A stretch of DNA of 64,000 bases. It comes from Alphaproteobacteria bacterium. GTDB taxonomy: Bacteria > Pseudomonadota > Alphaproteobacteria > UBA7985 > JAUIBT01. Each line of letters opens with the position of its first letter. The stretch's first letter is position 1. The stretch is taken from assembly GCA_030428565.1 (NCBI GenBank), contig JAUIDR010000009.1, forward strand, positions 9,986 to 73,985, read 5' to 3'. A program made the translations under genes and the position numbers. Under the pieces are notes generated by a model, which saw nothing but the letters and a program-made list of their open reading frames with translations, had not been told where the DNA came from and did no database searches. Below are positions 58,341-64,000 of the stretch, one piece after another.

Positions 58341-58822
58341 AAACCCCGAGGCTTGGAAGCCAAGCCGACGGTGGCTTTGCGGGACACCAGCGAAACCCCG
58401 AGGCTTGGAAGCCAAGCCGACGGTGGCTTTGCGAGACACCAGCGAAACCCCGAGGTTTGGAAGCCAAGCCGACGGTGGCTTTGCGAGACACCAGCGAAAC
58501 CTCGAGGCTTGGAAGCCAAGCCGACGGTGGCTTTGCGAGACACCAGCCAAAACCCGAGGCCTGGAAGCCAAGCCGACGGTGGCTTTGCGAGACACCAGCG
58601 AAACCCCGAGGCCTGGATGCCAAGCCGACGGTGGCTTTGCGAGACACCAGCGAAACCCCGAGGCTTGGAAGCCAAGCCGACGGTGGCTTTGCGGGACACC
58701 AGCGAAACCCCGAGGTTTGGAAGCCAAGCCGACGGTGGCTTTCCGAGACACCAGCCAAAACCCGAGGTTTGGAAGCCAAGCCGACGGTGGCTTTCCGAGA
58801 CACCAGCCAAAACCCGAGGCAT
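58341..58822. repeat. 52-bp tandem repeat array, 9.3 copies at at least 92% identity, each unit a hairpin (AAGCCA-N9-TGGCTT)
   Basis: Direct reading shows a period of exactly 52 nt (AAACCCCGAGGCTTGGAAGCCAAGCCGACGGTGGCTTTGCGAGACACCAGCG). There are no unique spacers, so it is not CRISPR. All six frames are open across it, which explains the long artefactual ORFs. Confidence 0.9.
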
Positions 58823-58844
58823 GGCGGTCAGGCCTGTTGGCGAG

Positions 58845-59638: not shown

Positions 59639-60373
59639 CTAGTCATCATCTCCCAATCCCGCCATGAAGTAGGCTGCGCGGCCTAGGCCCTGCTGATCAA
59701 TACCGTGCGCCAAGCCCTCGCAAGCATGGGTCTGAACGGGCACCTCAAGTTGTTCCAGCGCTTCTTTTGCCTGCCCTAAAGCTTTAAAGGGCACAATTGG
59801 GTCCAAAGTGCCGTGGACCAGCAAGACCGGCGGCTTGACCTTAATCTCGCTCGCGAGGCGCTGTGGTCCGGCAAGCGCTCCAGAAAAGCCTACCAGGCCA
59901 GCGGGCGCTTCGGGCAGCCGCAAACCGACCTCCAGCGTCATCATGCAGCCTTGTGAAAAACCGACCAAAATCAAGTCTTGCCACCCCAGCCCAGCGGCGG
60001 CTAGAGCCTTTTCCAAGAATGCGGTGAGGCCTGCACGGGCCTCTAGCGCGCCCTGGTCCTTTTCGTCGGCTGAGAGCGACATCAGCGGGAACCACTGGCG
60101 CCCCCCCATCATGCCGGGTTGCGGCGCGTTGGGCGACAGCCAGAGGCTGGGCCCCGGCACATGCGGTGCCAAGACCGGCGCCAAGCCGATCAAATCGTCC
60201 ATATCGGCGCCAAAGCCGTGCAACAGTACCACCAAGCGGCGCAGCGGCTGGCCAGCCGTGTCTTCATCGCGTGAGCGACTGTCGAACAGGCGGGCATCAT
60301 AGGGAAGACCCGCAAGAAGGACTTGCGGGTCTAGAGAAGCGGCCTGCTGGCCAGGTCGAACATTTTCGGTCAT
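59639..60373 (-). CDS. alpha/beta hydrolase, phospholipase/carboxylesterase family
   Basis: Contains LVVLLHGFGAD, the nucleophile elbow GFSQG and a C-terminal His region. It is 244 aa. Confidence 0.8.
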   Translation of the reverse strand: MTENVRPGQQAASLDPQVLLAGLPYDARLFDSRSRDEDTAGQPLRRLVVLLHGFGADMDDLIGLAPVLAPHVPGPSLWLSPNAPQPGMMGGRQWFPLMSLSADEKDQGALEARAGLTAFLEKALAAAGLGWQDLILVGFSQGCMMTLEVGLRLPEAPAGLVGFSGALAGPQRLASEIKVKPPVLLVHGTLDPIVPFKALGQAKEALEQLEVPVQTHACEGLAHGIDQQGLGRAAYFMAGLGDDD

Positions 60374-63153
60374 TGCTTCTTCAGTTCGTCAAACAGATCA
60401 TCGACCAACTGTTCTAACGGAGTGCCTTGCAAGCGCAAGACCCCAGCTCTTGCCTCTTCGGCCCAACGGCCATCGGGCCACTTGCGCAAATAGAACTCAT
60501 AGCCTTGGCGCGAATTGCGCTGGACCACATCGTCCCAGTCTTTGCGCTCCGAGCCGCGATAAGGACCGGTTCGCGCAGCCCGCACAAAGGCCGCGCGACC
60601 ATTGAGGCTAAAGCGGAACCATTGGTCGTCGCTGGTCTTGCCGTTGACCTGGATCGCGTCCTGAGCTTGCAGGCGTCCGACCCGAAGCACGTTGCCCTCG
60701 GGGGCATCAAAGACCCGCGTGCCATAGCGGGTAATGACCCGGATTTCTGGCGCCAAAGGCTGCACCTCAATGCTGGCGCCGCCAGACGAGCCGCCCGGGT
60801 CCATCAAGTGCGACAGGCGTACATAGCCTTCGCGGCCACCGCCACCACGCACGCTCACGCGCACCCAATCGCGGCCGTTGACCCGCGCCAACAAGCGCAC
60901 CGACCTGCCTTCGCTCAAGCTCAGCAAGCGCGCGGAGCGGCGGTCCGGACGCTCGAAGAGCCCCGTGGCCTGCTTGGTAATCATGCGGCCGTCCATAGGC
61001 GACTCACTGGGTCCGGTCAGGGCGCTCAGTTTGGCCCGCGCTTCATCTTCAAAAGCCGAGCCTGGGAAATCTCGCAAGAAGGCTTCCAGCTCAGACGCGC
61101 CGGGGTTGTCGCCCAGAGCCCGCCAAGCTTGCAGAGCCGAACCTTCATATTCCGAGAGCAAGCGCGCAAAGATATAACCTTCGCGGCGGACACCGCTGGT
61201 GCGTACGCGTACCCGCATCCATTGACGATCAGCGGTCAGCGAAATGCCATTGACGACGAGGTTGGCGGCCAAGGTATCCAGGATATCGCCGTCGCGACTG
61301 GGCGTTGAGCGCAGGCGCACTCGGCGTTCTGTATAGTAAGGCGCGTTGACGATAATGACCTCGGGCTCGTCAGGGGTCAGTTCATCCAAGCGCGCTTGCG
61401 CCAGAGCCGCGAACTGACTGGCGGCAAAGTTGGCCAAGAAGCGCAGGAAGACACGGCGATTATTGCTGTTCTTGATCTCTTCCCAAGCCTCGTAGTCGGA
61501 GCCAGCATAGACGGAGAGAACGCGCTTGAGCATGAAGCCCCGCCCGCCGCGGATTTCGACTTCGTACCAATTGGTACCAACGACCGCCCCCAAAACGGTG
61601 AGCTTTTGCAACGCTTCAAAGCGGCCAAGTCTGTTGCCTTCACTGCGTGAGGGGAAATCAAAGACCTGGGCATCACGATCCAGATAGTAGACCTGGTGGA
61701 TAGGGGTGATGCGCAGATTCGCAAGACGGCGGTCGCGATCGGCGGCGATGATCGCGGCGCGCTGTTGGCGGGCGCGATCGGCAAAACGACCGTCTGGGAA
61801 ACGCTGTAGGAAATTGTTCAATGCCGCCAAATCACCCGAGCCATCGACCGACTGCCAAGCCACGAACTCTGAGCCCGCTGCGGGTTCGACCAGGGAGGAG
61901 AAGATAAAGGCCTGCTGGCCGTTCGGCAGCTCGATCAAATACCACGATTGGCCGCTCACCTTGCCAATGACCGTCACTTGCGTATCGGTGCTGAGCGTTT
62001 GCACCCGATCAAAGTTGGTGCCCGGACCTTGGCGCGTGTTGGAATTACGACGGGTGATATAGGTTTGATTGATGTTGCTCAGCCGATAGGAATCGTAGAG
62101 GTCTGCGCGCGCCTGCCGGGCCTGAGCCGCATAAACCCCGCCGGGGTAGTCAACCAAATAGGCATCGTAACCCGCCAGCGCCTGGCTGGCCTGCGCTTGA
62201 TCCCAAGCTTCTTGTTCAGCCTGGCTGACAAAACCACCCACGGGGCCCGGGCCGGAAGTCACCAAGCCCGCCAGTGTCGTTGTGGATTGATAATCGAATG
62301 AGAGTTGAGGGCGTGTCGCGCCATTACTCCGTTGAGCGACCGAACTTGCGAGCGTTGATAGCGCCTCCATCAGATCCATACGGCCATCGCGTACCAAACT
62401 GGCCAAGAACAAATTGATAAACAGGCGGCTGCCGTTGGCGGTGTTGGGTTGCGCGCCAGATTGGGCGTGCAAAACGATCACATCGCGGCGGCCGATAGGC
62501 TCGCTCAATGCCGGGCTGACATCCAGCGCGCCGTCGCCAAGAACCAAGCGCGCATCGTCGGCCAAAGCATGGTCAAAGCCGGCATTGACCAGTAACGCCC
62601 CCGGCGCAGGCCCCGCGCCCAGTGCCATGACTACTGCGCTCAAATTCAGGGCCTTGGTGTGCAAATCAAACGGATTGCTCATTTCCGCATCGGTCGGCAG
62701 CGCATAGACGTGGCCGTCGACGCTCAGGCTGTGACCGGAATAGAAGACTAGGCGCTGTGAGGCGTCTTGCGAATCAGCAAAGAACTGGCCGACACCGGCA
62801 ATCAGCTCGGCCTGTTTGGCGTTCTCCACCCGTGAAACGCGGTAGCCCAGCGCGCGCAGCTCGAAGGCCAAATCACGGCCTTGGCGAATAGCGTCCGCGA
62901 CCGGCGGCAGACCGTCATAGCTCTGGTTTACGATCACCAAAGCGTGGGGAATGCGCAGACCTTGGGCTTGCGCACGACTGGCCCCGGGCCCAAACGCCAT
63001 CAGCGTCGCCAACAAGGCCAGAGCAAGCCAAAGGGCGGCTTGCCGCAAAATCGGGCCACGATCAAGCGCCTGCTGAACGACCTGCACACGCACGCGCGCT
63101 CGTCGCCGGGCTGGGCAAAGCTGGTGTCGGGCATTACAGTGAGAATCGCGCAT
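60370..63153 (-). CDS. large secreted multidomain protein: N-terminal caspase-like (peptidase C14) domain lacking the catalytic Cys, then repeated SH3b-like domains and helical W...YL..FP.G.FA..A hairpin repeats
   Basis: A signal-like hydrophobic segment (LWLALALLATLMAFGPGASRAQA) precedes the caspase motifs ALVIVNQSY and RLVFYSGHS. At the expected Cys position the sequence reads VIVLHAQSG. The mature protein has no Cys at all. SH3b-like modules occur three or more times. The true start is uncertain. Confidence 0.6.
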   Translation of the reverse strand: MRDSHCNARHQLCPARRRARVRVQVVQQALDRGPILRQAALWLALALLATLMAFGPGASRAQAQGLRIPHALVIVNQSYDGLPPVADAIRQGRDLAFELRALGYRVSRVENAKQAELIAGVGQFFADSQDASQRLVFYSGHSLSVDGHVYALPTDAEMSNPFDLHTKALNLSAVVMALGAGPAPGALLVNAGFDHALADDARLVLGDGALDVSPALSEPIGRRDVIVLHAQSGAQPNTANGSRLFINLFLASLVRDGRMDLMEALSTLASSVAQRSNGATRPQLSFDYQSTTTLAGLVTSGPGPVGGFVSQAEQEAWDQAQASQALAGYDAYLVDYPGGVYAAQARQARADLYDSYRLSNINQTYITRRNSNTRQGPGTNFDRVQTLSTDTQVTVIGKVSGQSWYLIELPNGQQAFIFSSLVEPAAGSEFVAWQSVDGSGDLAALNNFLQRFPDGRFADRARQQRAAIIAADRDRRLANLRITPIHQVYYLDRDAQVFDFPSRSEGNRLGRFEALQKLTVLGAVVGTNWYEVEIRGGRGFMLKRVLSVYAGSDYEAWEEIKNSNNRRVFLRFLANFAASQFAALAQARLDELTPDEPEVIIVNAPYYTERRVRLRSTPSRDGDILDTLAANLVVNGISLTADRQWMRVRVRTSGVRREGYIFARLLSEYEGSALQAWRALGDNPGASELEAFLRDFPGSAFEDEARAKLSALTGPSESPMDGRMITKQATGLFERPDRRSARLLSLSEGRSVRLLARVNGRDWVRVSVRGGGGREGYVRLSHLMDPGGSSGGASIEVQPLAPEIRVITRYGTRVFDAPEGNVLRVGRLQAQDAIQVNGKTSDDQWFRFSLNGRAAFVRAARTGPYRGSERKDWDDVVQRNSRQGYEFYLRKWPDGRWAEEARAGVLRLQGTPLEQLVDDLFDELKKQ

Positions 63154-63312
63154 GGCTAGTCTCCTTCCATTTGTCGTTTGCGCTTTTGTCTAGGACATGG
63201 GGCCTAGCGACCTTGATCCAGGTCTAATCGCGCGCGCCTAAACCAAAGCTGAACACAGCCGGGCCAGGCAGTAAAGCGCCAATATCTAGTTTGCTTTATC
63301 AACGCGGCTTTG

Positions 63313-63362
63313 TGATGGCGTTGTTCGCCATCAGATGAGGAAATCTATATTTATATATAAAT
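63313..63362. promoter_or_regulatory. two palindromes in a 690-bp intergenic region: TGATGGCG-N5-CGCCATCA (63313-63333) and ATTTATATATAAAT (63349-63362)
   Basis: Both are perfect inverted repeats upstream of the pseudo-caspase gene, in a locally AT-rich stretch. Confidence 0.35.
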
Positions 63363-63840
63363 CACAATGACTTAGCGACAAAATCCCACAGCTTGCTCCC
63401 GCGCTTAGCTTCATGTACCGCCTGGCTTGGCACGTGGCCCGCCCCAACTCTCAAAAACGCCCGCTGTTAAGCTCTTGGGATTTGGCGGGTGGTTTTGGCG
63501 GATGGTTTGTGTTTATCGCGCCTGGATCGGGCCCGGTTATGAGCCGCACCCGCCTAGCAGAGCAACGGACACAATAAAGGCACCCGGGCTACGCGTTGCT
63601 TGGCGAACCTAGGGCTCGCTTGGGGCCCCTGCCGCACGGCTGTTATTCGAGCTGCTGCGTAGCCATGTCAGCTTGCAAAAATTTGGATAAAGCGGTTACA
63701 AGGATCGGGGCTGGCGAGACTCGCTGACAGTGGCACTGATCGCCGCTGCGGACTTTTGGACGGGCCTGGTGCCGCGTTTCATGGCGCCTGTGCGACAAGC
63801 GATCGAGTGCTTGCCAAATATCAATGCAAAGGCGGTCCCA

Positions 63841-64000
63841 TGACGATCAAACCCTCGCAGACGCTCATTTTGGCGCTGCTCATCATTGTTCAGTTGGTCT
63901 GTGCACTGTTTTTTGCTTGGGATGTGAGCCGCGATTATTTTGAGATCGGCAACCAGAGCCTGCCCGATTTTCACCTGGCCATGGAAGCCGTTTCGGTCTT
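63841..64000 (+). CDS. membrane protein, 5' partial (continues beyond window end)
   Basis: After the ATG at 63841 comes a hydrophobic helix LILALLIIVQLVCALFFAW. The frame is still open at the window end. Confidence 0.45.

Follow-up and report, generated by a model that had tools for sequence, protein, structure and literature searches.

A predicted exported pseudo-orthocaspase joined to an array of SH3b modules and helical hairpins in uncultured Alphaproteobacteria

Introduction

What is a caspase-like domain for when it carries no catalytic cysteine and forms the head of a long, apparently exported bacterial protein? The question is raised by one gene in a stretch of 64,000 nucleotides from an alphaproteobacterial assembly (GCA_030428565.1, contig JAUIDR010000009.1, positions 9,986 to 73,985 of the forward strand), which was analysed at its full length and is called the window below. 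The gene lies on the minus strand at 60370..63153 and encodes a pseudo-caspase/SH3b-hairpin array protein of 927 residues followed by a stop codon, hereafter the window protein. Its open reading frame (ORF), taken from the ORF list, is real and complete; an AAGGAG ribosome-binding site, graded strong, is found 7 nt 5' of the ATG, and an identical protein (P0001) is present in public assemblies. An earlier note, made by eye from the sequence, had described the product as a secreted, cysteine-free pseudo-caspase that continues into SH3b modules and a helical motif present in several copies. The answer that we favour, with moderate confidence, is that the window protein is an exported, most likely periplasmic, non-catalytic pseudo-orthocaspase that would serve as an envelope-anchored binding or scaffold protein through its SH3b/hairpin array.

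Relatives of full-length architecture proved to be scarce. Only five close homologues were present among 5.8 billion clusters, with 66-100% identity, all of them from uncultured Alphaproteobacteria or Rhodospirillaceae metagenome-assembled genomes (MAGs). The cluster look-up of these homologues returned no informative protein names; one ortholog fragment had been labelled 'YgiM (DUF1202 family)' by the Joint Genome Institute (JGI). A word-index search with the N-domain alignment found 1 protein, and with the six-member full-length alignment it found few new relatives, missing two distant family members that were found through an exhaustive search of representatives. The first of these, P0009 (933 aa, E 2e-47), has the same architecture with a Leu/Gly dyad and the motifs FGGLS and INAGF; the second, P0057 (812 aa), also shares the architecture and has a His/Gly dyad and the motif LDTGY. 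Scans of genome and metagenome contigs gave 3 loci each, made up of known orthologs, P0057 again (as marine metagenome locus L009) and two C-terminal fragments.

The head is modelled as a caspase fold

The earlier note had read caspase/peptidase-C14 hallmarks into the N-terminal domain and had proposed a structure prediction as a check. This assignment was confirmed by Pfam, AlphaFold and Foldseek for a head that spans residues 64-296 (62266..62964, minus strand). Pfam PF00656 (Peptidase_C14) matched residues 70-286 with 38.7 bits against a cut-off of 21.4, and a profile made from 145 relatives, with the window protein's own family left out, gave the head 121 bits. Used in an exhaustive search, the head profile retrieved 15,466 caspase-family proteins at E<=1e-3. 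A single-sequence search of the PDB with the window protein gave nothing significant. An AlphaFold run on the five orthologs alone reached a predicted local distance difference test (pLDDT) score of 36, and the addition of 40 distant caspase domains led to a confident model of the head (45-sequence alignment; pLDDT 94.4, predicted template modelling score (pTM) 0.92). All of the top 50 Foldseek matches to this model in the PDB were MALT1, caspases-6, -7, -9, -11 or -1, or CED-3, at a probability of 1.00, with template modelling (TM) scores of 0.63-0.75 for MALT1 and caspases-6/7/9/11.

Three strands of the model frame the positions discussed below. Strand 73-78 corresponds to residues 134-139 and ends directly before Gly140-His141, strand 124-129 corresponds to residues 185-190 and ends directly before Ala191-Gly192, and strand 164-168 reads VIVLH and is followed by AQSG. 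As modelled, the head is a caspase-type alpha/beta fold and a member of the Peptidase C14 family.

Glycine occupies the nucleophile position

The SGHS block singled out by the earlier note is indeed the histidine block. The head profile alignment placed FYSGHSLSVDG..LPTDA opposite YYAGHGYENFG..VPVDA of MALT1, so that His141 of FYSGHS (62731..62733, minus strand) is the retained equivalent of the catalytic His in the YAGHG motif of MALT1. The column holds His in 142/152 relatives; it is His in the window protein and the close orthologs P0001-5, and Leu in P0009.

The position of the catalytic cysteine was located by aligning the 152 best domains with MAFFT. Its column, occupied by Cys in 117/152 and embedded in the motif l-D-A-C-R-[DN]-N-P, falls on Gly192 of LLVNAGFDHA, which makes VNAGF (residues 189-193; 62575..62589, minus strand) the equivalent of L-D-A-C-R. 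Alignment A4 also put the column at Gly192, without a large insertion, and the family-free profile of 145 relatives set viLDAc opposite LLVNAG and yaakaG opposite HAQSGA. The earlier note had seen the lost cysteine in HAQSG (residues 229-233; 62455..62469, minus strand). By column counts (Y/F, A/S, A/T), profile and model this segment instead closes the following beta-strand and corresponds to Y-A-[AT]-x-x-G, with Gln231 in the A/T column; the secondary structure of the AlphaFold model agrees that it is the next strand and not the Cys site. His141 is separated from Gly192 by 51 residues and from Gln231 by 90; the former distance is close to the His-to-Cys spacing of MALT1, 49. The change to follow in orthologs, proposed earlier as Cys to Gln, therefore concerns Gly192 and not Gln231. 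No conserved Cys emerged at the catalytic position, and Gly192 is invariant across P0001-5, P0009 and P0057; His141 is not.

The degeneration of the site goes further than had been seen from the sequence by eye, because the columns of the specificity pocket and several other near-invariant active-site positions have been replaced as well. Two aspartates, Asp95 and Asp211 in TbMC2, form the pocket for a basic P1 residue, and both are reported to be conserved in the pseudo-orthocaspases described so far (PMC6426788, section 17). The first of these columns, part of an N-D-A motif, falls on Gln91 (62881..62883, minus strand); in relatives outside the family it is Asp in 142/145 and Glu in 3/145, it is Asp in P0009 and P0057, and it is Gln in the clade of the window protein. 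The second falls on Asn190, where 143/152 relatives have the Asp of the D-x-C motif. Both pocket acids of the window protein are thus neutralised to amides. Read across the His, first Asp, second Asp and Cys columns, the family forms the series H,D,D,G in P0057, L,D,N,G in P0009 and H,Q,N,G in the window clade. Further signature residues replaced in this clade are G75 (now Val75; Gly in 138/145 relatives), R193 (Phe193; Arg in 134/152), the pair N195/P196 (His195-Ala196, opposite Asn-Pro), D239 (Ala239; Asp in 123/145) and Q280 (Thr280; Gln in 137/145), and the N-P-x-N-D-A motif of relatives is represented by Asp87-Ala88-x-Arg90-Gln91-Gly92.

The earlier note had also stated that the mature protein is free of cysteine, and this is correct. 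The only two, Cys6 and Cys13, lie in the N-region, before the hydrophobic core of the signal and upstream of the presumed cleavage. About 11 would be expected in a mature chain of 864 aa at the 1.3% Cys of the window's other long ORFs; none is present, and the mature chain is Cys-free in 7/7 family members. Pfam found no second C14 match and no p10-type match in the window protein. Collectively, the alignments indicate that the head cannot be a cysteine protease, as its nucleophile is missing, and that it is a pseudo-orthocaspase in the sense of PMC6426788, with a prokaryotic p20, no p10 and an H/G dyad. The verdict of a dead enzyme thus outlived the wrong placement of the nucleophile, and the case illustrates that an assignment of catalytic residues made by eye, on the basis of short motifs, can miss the correct site by an entire strand.

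Five SH3b modules and five hairpins follow the head

The remainder of the protein was resolved with a profile of 16 units into five SH3b modules, of which at least three had been recognised before, and five helical hairpins (all coordinates below are on the minus strand). The array opens with an orphan, BamD/YfiO-like hairpin, H1 (residues 312-352; 62098..62220; unit profile domain 1). SH3b-1 with hairpin H2 follows (residues 358-469; 61747..62082; independent E-value (iE) 1e-41; best SH3_3 stretch 374-422), then SH3b-2 with H3 (residues 481-593; 61375..61713; iE 5e-38) and SH3b-3 with H4 (residues 599-713; 61015..61359; iE 8e-35), the latter two also delimited in alignment A6. Next comes SH3b-4 (residues 719-786; 60796..60999), an orphan matched as unit profile domain 5 in its SH3b half only and continued by a Gly/Ser linker, and the array closes with SH3b-5 and H5 (residues 801-909; 60427..60753; iE 1e-38). 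The five copies of a W motif of about 38 aa, counted earlier by eye, were recovered by a regular expression for W..[FY]L..[FY]P.G.[FY]A..A at residues 317, 433, 557, 677 and 873.

All five SH3b-like beta modules align with one another, and those that carry a hairpin are joined to it by a conserved Y-x-G-S-[DE]-x3-W junction. Pfam SH3_3 gave 94.4 bits over 4 stretches, so that four of the five modules pass; the fifth (residues ~719-786) has a weak SH3_2 match at 740-782 and is recognised by the unit profile. Taken singly, 13/16 units from four family members match SH3_3. NCBIfam gave sub-threshold SH3 and BamD matches only. Against solved structures, the unit profile matched the SH3b domains 2krs, 2kq8, 9ovi, 2kt8, 2kyb and 6bim (NlpC/P60) with E-values of 3e-5 to 9e-3, structures that belong to cell-wall hydrolases and 'enterotoxins'.

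The helical half of the unit profile matched BamD (5waq, 3qky) and CpoB (6g5s) with E-values of 0.005-0.07. The YfiO model of Pfam gave the window protein 16.2 bits against a cut-off of 25, on one hairpin only (313-352), and gave P0009 50 bits summed over its hairpins. Judged by these matches, the hairpins resemble BamD repeats and are not those of a BamD ortholog. The hairpin lost after SH3b-4 is still present in P0009, with the Gly/Ser linker in its place in the window clade, and the GSER..WD...GRW signature of the SH3b-5/H5 unit is conserved in all branches (alignment A5).

Beyond the array, the protein ends in an acidic amphipathic tail, GTPLEQLVDDLFDELKKQ (residues 910-927; 60373..60426, minus strand). 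Comparison of the orthologs showed it to be identical in three of them and nearly so in two, with no conservation in P0009 or P0057; it may serve as a partner-binding peptide confined to this clade.

The W..FL..FP.G.FA..A motif was also met outside the family. It occurs five times in P0006 (913 aa), a protein with a dyad-intact caspase domain and an FGE-sulfatase domain, and again in PG_binding_1/2 proteins devoid of a caspase domain (the set comprises P0006, P0007 and P0158-P0161). From this distribution the hairpin appears to be a mobile periplasmic module, not specific to the family of the window protein.

An N-terminal signal points to export

Residues 1-63 (62965..63153, minus strand) read as an export signal, which runs from an extended n-region rich in Arg through the hydrophobic core AALWLALALLATLMAF to a signal-peptidase-like site, A-Q-A|QG. 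The segment AQAQGLRIPHAL is near-invariant among the orthologs, and so is the AQA|QG that follows the hydrophobic core in the close ones. In P0009 and P0057 the signal peptide is short and canonical and ends in ASA|Q and AMA|Q, respectively. These canonical signals and the near-invariant AQA|QG support export of the window protein, which we infer to be exported with cleavage of the signal and to reside most likely in the periplasm.

Residues 1-40 form an Arg-rich extension that is poorly conserved and unlike the ordinary short signals of the distant homologues. Tat export was considered for this region and set aside: there is no conserved motif of the RR-x-F-L-K type, and P0004 and P0005 have no paired Arg. 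A lipoprotein was rejected too, as the absence of a Cys leaves no lipobox.

The head is under strong purifying selection

Ratios of nonsynonymous to synonymous substitution (dN/dS) were estimated by the Nei-Gojobori method against the orthologs P0003 and P0004, respectively, and are approximate since dS is saturated in both comparisons. They were 0.037 / 0.103 for the caspase-like domain, 0.071 / 0.171 for the SH3b-hairpin array, 0.24 / 0.40 for the signal region and 0.07-0.17 for the whole protein. Constraint on the window protein is tightest in the caspase-like domain, which is under strong purifying selection; this indicates that the head has a function and that the gene is not decaying.

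Exported and dyad-less relatives

The closest caspase-domain relatives outside the clade place this family in a broader setting. The catalytic dyad is missing in 31/146 of them (P0057 included), and published surveys put the fraction of orthocaspases without a dyad at 8.6% for bacteria and 18.9% for Alphaproteobacteria (Klemencic et al. 2019, PMC6426788); the statement in the earlier note that pseudo-caspases are rare in bacteria does not stand. Likewise, in an earlier survey no more than 75% of the alphaproteobacterial homologues had an intact dyad, and 1.6% of the sequences carried peptidoglycan-binding domains (Asplund-Samuelsson et al. 2012, PMC3501461).

In 70 related caspase-domain proteins the recurring domains were PG_binding_1 (7), PG_binding_2 (4), SH3_3 (3), OmpA (1) and SPOR (1), and a crude hydrophobicity test detected signal-peptide-like N-termini in ~60% of the relatives with an N-terminal caspase domain. 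These signal-like N-termini and wall-binding domains suggest that the family arose from exported orthocaspases with cell-wall-binding modules.

The top-scoring relatives outside the family were enriched in dyad-less variants (H/S, H/A, F/S and Y/A), namely P0011, P0012, P0013, P0017, P0019, P0020 and P0023. Several of these contain a tandem pair of caspase domains or show a CHAT-like match, and as a group they hint at a broader clade of exported orthocaspases that have degenerated.

Proposed function and alternative explanations

How could such a protein work? In the proposal that we favour, the window protein acts as an envelope-anchored binding or scaffold protein and not as an enzyme. The SH3b modules would attach the protein multivalently to the cell wall or envelope, by analogy with other SH3b domains through binding of peptidoglycan, and the hairpins would act as rigid spacers or protein-contact surfaces. 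The strongly conserved, uncharged remnant of the substrate groove would then bind a peptide or protein ligand without cleaving it.

Several points weigh against this proposal. Binding of peptidoglycan by SH3b domains is established mainly for cell-wall hydrolases of Gram-positive bacteria, and the likeness of the hairpins to BamD and CpoB is marginal at the sequence level. With its atypical Arg-rich n-region of 40 aa, the N-terminus could be an uncleaved membrane anchor. The AlphaFold model covers the N-terminal domain only. The gene neighbourhood gives no functional theme.

A bolder version, which we regard as unlikely, takes the head to be a repurposed peptide receptor: fold and groove stayed under the strongest constraint in the protein, the nucleophile is gone and the pocket acids became amides. 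The S1 pocket would have been switched from basic to neutral or acidic ligands, and the five SH3b modules would tether a head that reads or anchors a specific envelope peptide, such as the stem peptide of peptidoglycan or the end of a protein linked to the wall. The series from P0057 through P0009 to the window clade would record a stepwise conversion of an enzyme into a receptor.

Somewhat less probable still is that the window protein regulates an active orthocaspase encoded elsewhere in the genome, or acts as its decoy, by pairing with it or by competing for its substrates, as in cFLIP/caspase-8 or TbMC4. Pseudo-caspases of animals and protozoa do work in this way (PMC6426788), and the closest relatives of the window protein are active-looking exported orthocaspases with cell-wall-binding domains. 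However, no active caspase gene, and indeed no second caspase-like or SH3b-hairpin gene, was found in the 64-kb window, nor an active caspase gene in the related loci, the genomes being incomplete MAGs. The neutralisation of both pocket Asp residues argues against competition for basic-P1 substrates, and the authors of PMC6426788 deem regulation of active paralogues unlikely for prokaryotic variants.

We consider it very doubtful that the protein is an active protease, in which His141 would work with a nucleophile other than Cys (such as the nearby Ser139, Ser142 or Ser232) or with an activated water, the SH3b modules tethering the protein as it cleaves envelope proteins. Retention of His141 in the five close orthologs and the strong purifying selection on the domain would be in keeping with this, as would the several relatives with a His/Ser dyad, which in principle are perhaps catalytic. 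Yet all three branches have Gly, a residue lacking a side chain, in the nucleophile column, both pocket Asp are lost together with the R193, N195/P196, D239 and Q280 columns, and P0009 has Leu in place of the His while keeping the same architecture.

That the pseudo-enzyme is defined by a Cys-to-Gln change within HAQSG, which superficially looks like D-x-C-x-S-G and has its Gln231 conserved in the five close orthologs, is hardly credible when three independent alignments (MAFFT 152, A4 and the family-free profile) place the Cys column at Gly192 and when a spacing of 90 residues would need an insertion that is seen neither in the alignments nor in the confident model. Equally far-fetched is a decaying gene or annotation artefact without function: homologues are very few, all from MAGs and none named, but the intact frame of 927 codons persists in orthologs down to 66% identity and in two distant branches, dN/dS is 0.04-0.17 (with saturated dS), and a strong ribosome-binding site precedes the start.

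The reuse of protein folds is displayed by dead enzymes that selection maintains. Should the head of the window protein indeed bind an envelope peptide, pseudo-orthocaspases, which make up about 1/5 of alphaproteobacterial orthocaspases, would gain a concrete function open to testing, and the many exported orthocaspases with peptidoglycan-binding domains would be linked to cell-wall biology. Were the head a receptor as outlined above, it would belong to a class of periplasmic caspase-fold 'reader' proteins that has not been described before. For a tiny family seen only in metagenomes, the immediate impact is modest.

Genomic neighbourhood

Directly 3' of the pseudo-caspase gene lies a gene for an Abhydrolase_2 carboxylesterase/phospholipase (59639..60373, minus strand; Pfam PF02230, 111.8 bits) in which a signal peptide is not obvious. 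The ATG of this gene and the stop codon of the pseudo-caspase gene overlap (ATGA), which suggests translational coupling, and the two genes are probably co-transcribed. The pair is conserved in the P0004 locus. The P0009 gene follows infC and has no esterase directly 3'; the next ORF lies ~375 nt on and is cut by the contig end. A functional link to the esterase was therefore dropped, there being no support for it beyond the close clade.

Further 3' of the esterase gene are an HNH endonuclease gene, a tandem repeat of 52 bp x 9.3 and dsbB; divergently upstream of the pseudo-caspase gene, a gene for a GerE/LuxR-type regulator runs off the window end. This gene order is kept in the P0004 locus. 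With GroEL, DsbB and an aminotransferase, the neighbourhood is housekeeping-like. A defence-system reading of caspase-like protein, HNH and esterase was considered and rejected: PADLOC defence models gave 0 families at E<=0.01 for the window protein, neither it nor the esterase had a PADLOC match, and the HNH gene gave a generic one only.

The intergenic region upstream of the pseudo-caspase gene (within 63154-64000) is unusually long, ~690 bp, and has an AT-rich patch near 63345-63375. Rfam had no match in the whole window, hence no riboswitch in this region, and a promoter and terminator scan stayed at background level. The 52-bp repeat (58341-58824, 9.3 copies, 95% identity, between the HNH gene and dsbB) carries a short palindrome, GGCTTGG..CCAAGCC, in its unit and yields long spurious ORFs in all six frames. 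Only ~250 bp separate the HNH gene from dsbB in the P0004 locus, which indicates that the array is lineage-specific.

Comparison with known systems

The nearest counterparts of the window protein are the pseudo-orthocaspases already described. Shared with these are a prokaryotic p20-type fold without the His-Cys dyad and without a p10, presumed to be non-catalytic, an alphaproteobacterial host (the class richest in such variants) and C-terminal protein-interaction repeats. The differences lie in the dyad, in the pocket, in the host and in the array. Common dyads are YS, YA, FS, QC and HA, with the FS variants fused to tetratricopeptide repeats (TPRs) (PMC6426788), whereas the window protein has His/Gly and P0009 Leu/Gly. 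Both pocket Asp are kept in the described proteins and have become Gln and Asn in the window clade, and 96% of the described alphaproteobacterial cases come from Rhizobiales, unlike the uncultured Rhodospirillaceae-like lineage of the window. The main texts of PMC6426788 and PMC3501461 make no mention of an SH3b-hairpin array, and a literature search for the Pfam pair of the window protein found nothing.

With MALT1 and the animal caspases, the window protein shares the fold, an alignable strand-1 and His block (E about 1e-3) and a similar spacing from His to the Cys site. It differs in having no catalytic Cys and no death, Ig or CARD domains; identity is 12-18%, and those proteins are cytosolic while the window protein is predicted to be exported. 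Like cFLIP(L) and TbMC4, it has kept a caspase fold under selection after loss of the nucleophile, and action by binding, known for these two, is what we propose here. They act on or with an active paralogue, which is not evident for the window protein, and the relation is one of shared fold only.

The array, in turn, recalls two groups of envelope proteins. SH3_3 modules and matches to solved SH3b domains are shared with cell-wall hydrolases and with YgiM-type periplasmic SH3 proteins; in contrast to the hydrolases, the window protein has no hydrolase domain and combines SH3b and hairpin in a two-part repeat. The hairpins of BamD/YfiO and CpoB (YbgF) are periplasmic protein-interaction modules, and the W..FL..FP.G.FA..A motif aligns to single helical hairpins of these proteins. 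There the hairpins form a contiguous TPR solenoid, whereas here they are isolated and alternate with SH3b modules. Collectively, these comparisons identify the window protein as a rare variant of the known bacterial pseudo-orthocaspases and not as a new kind of system; what is particular to it is the combination of a His/Gly dyad, the loss of both pocket Asp, the SH3b-hairpin array and the extreme rarity of its family.

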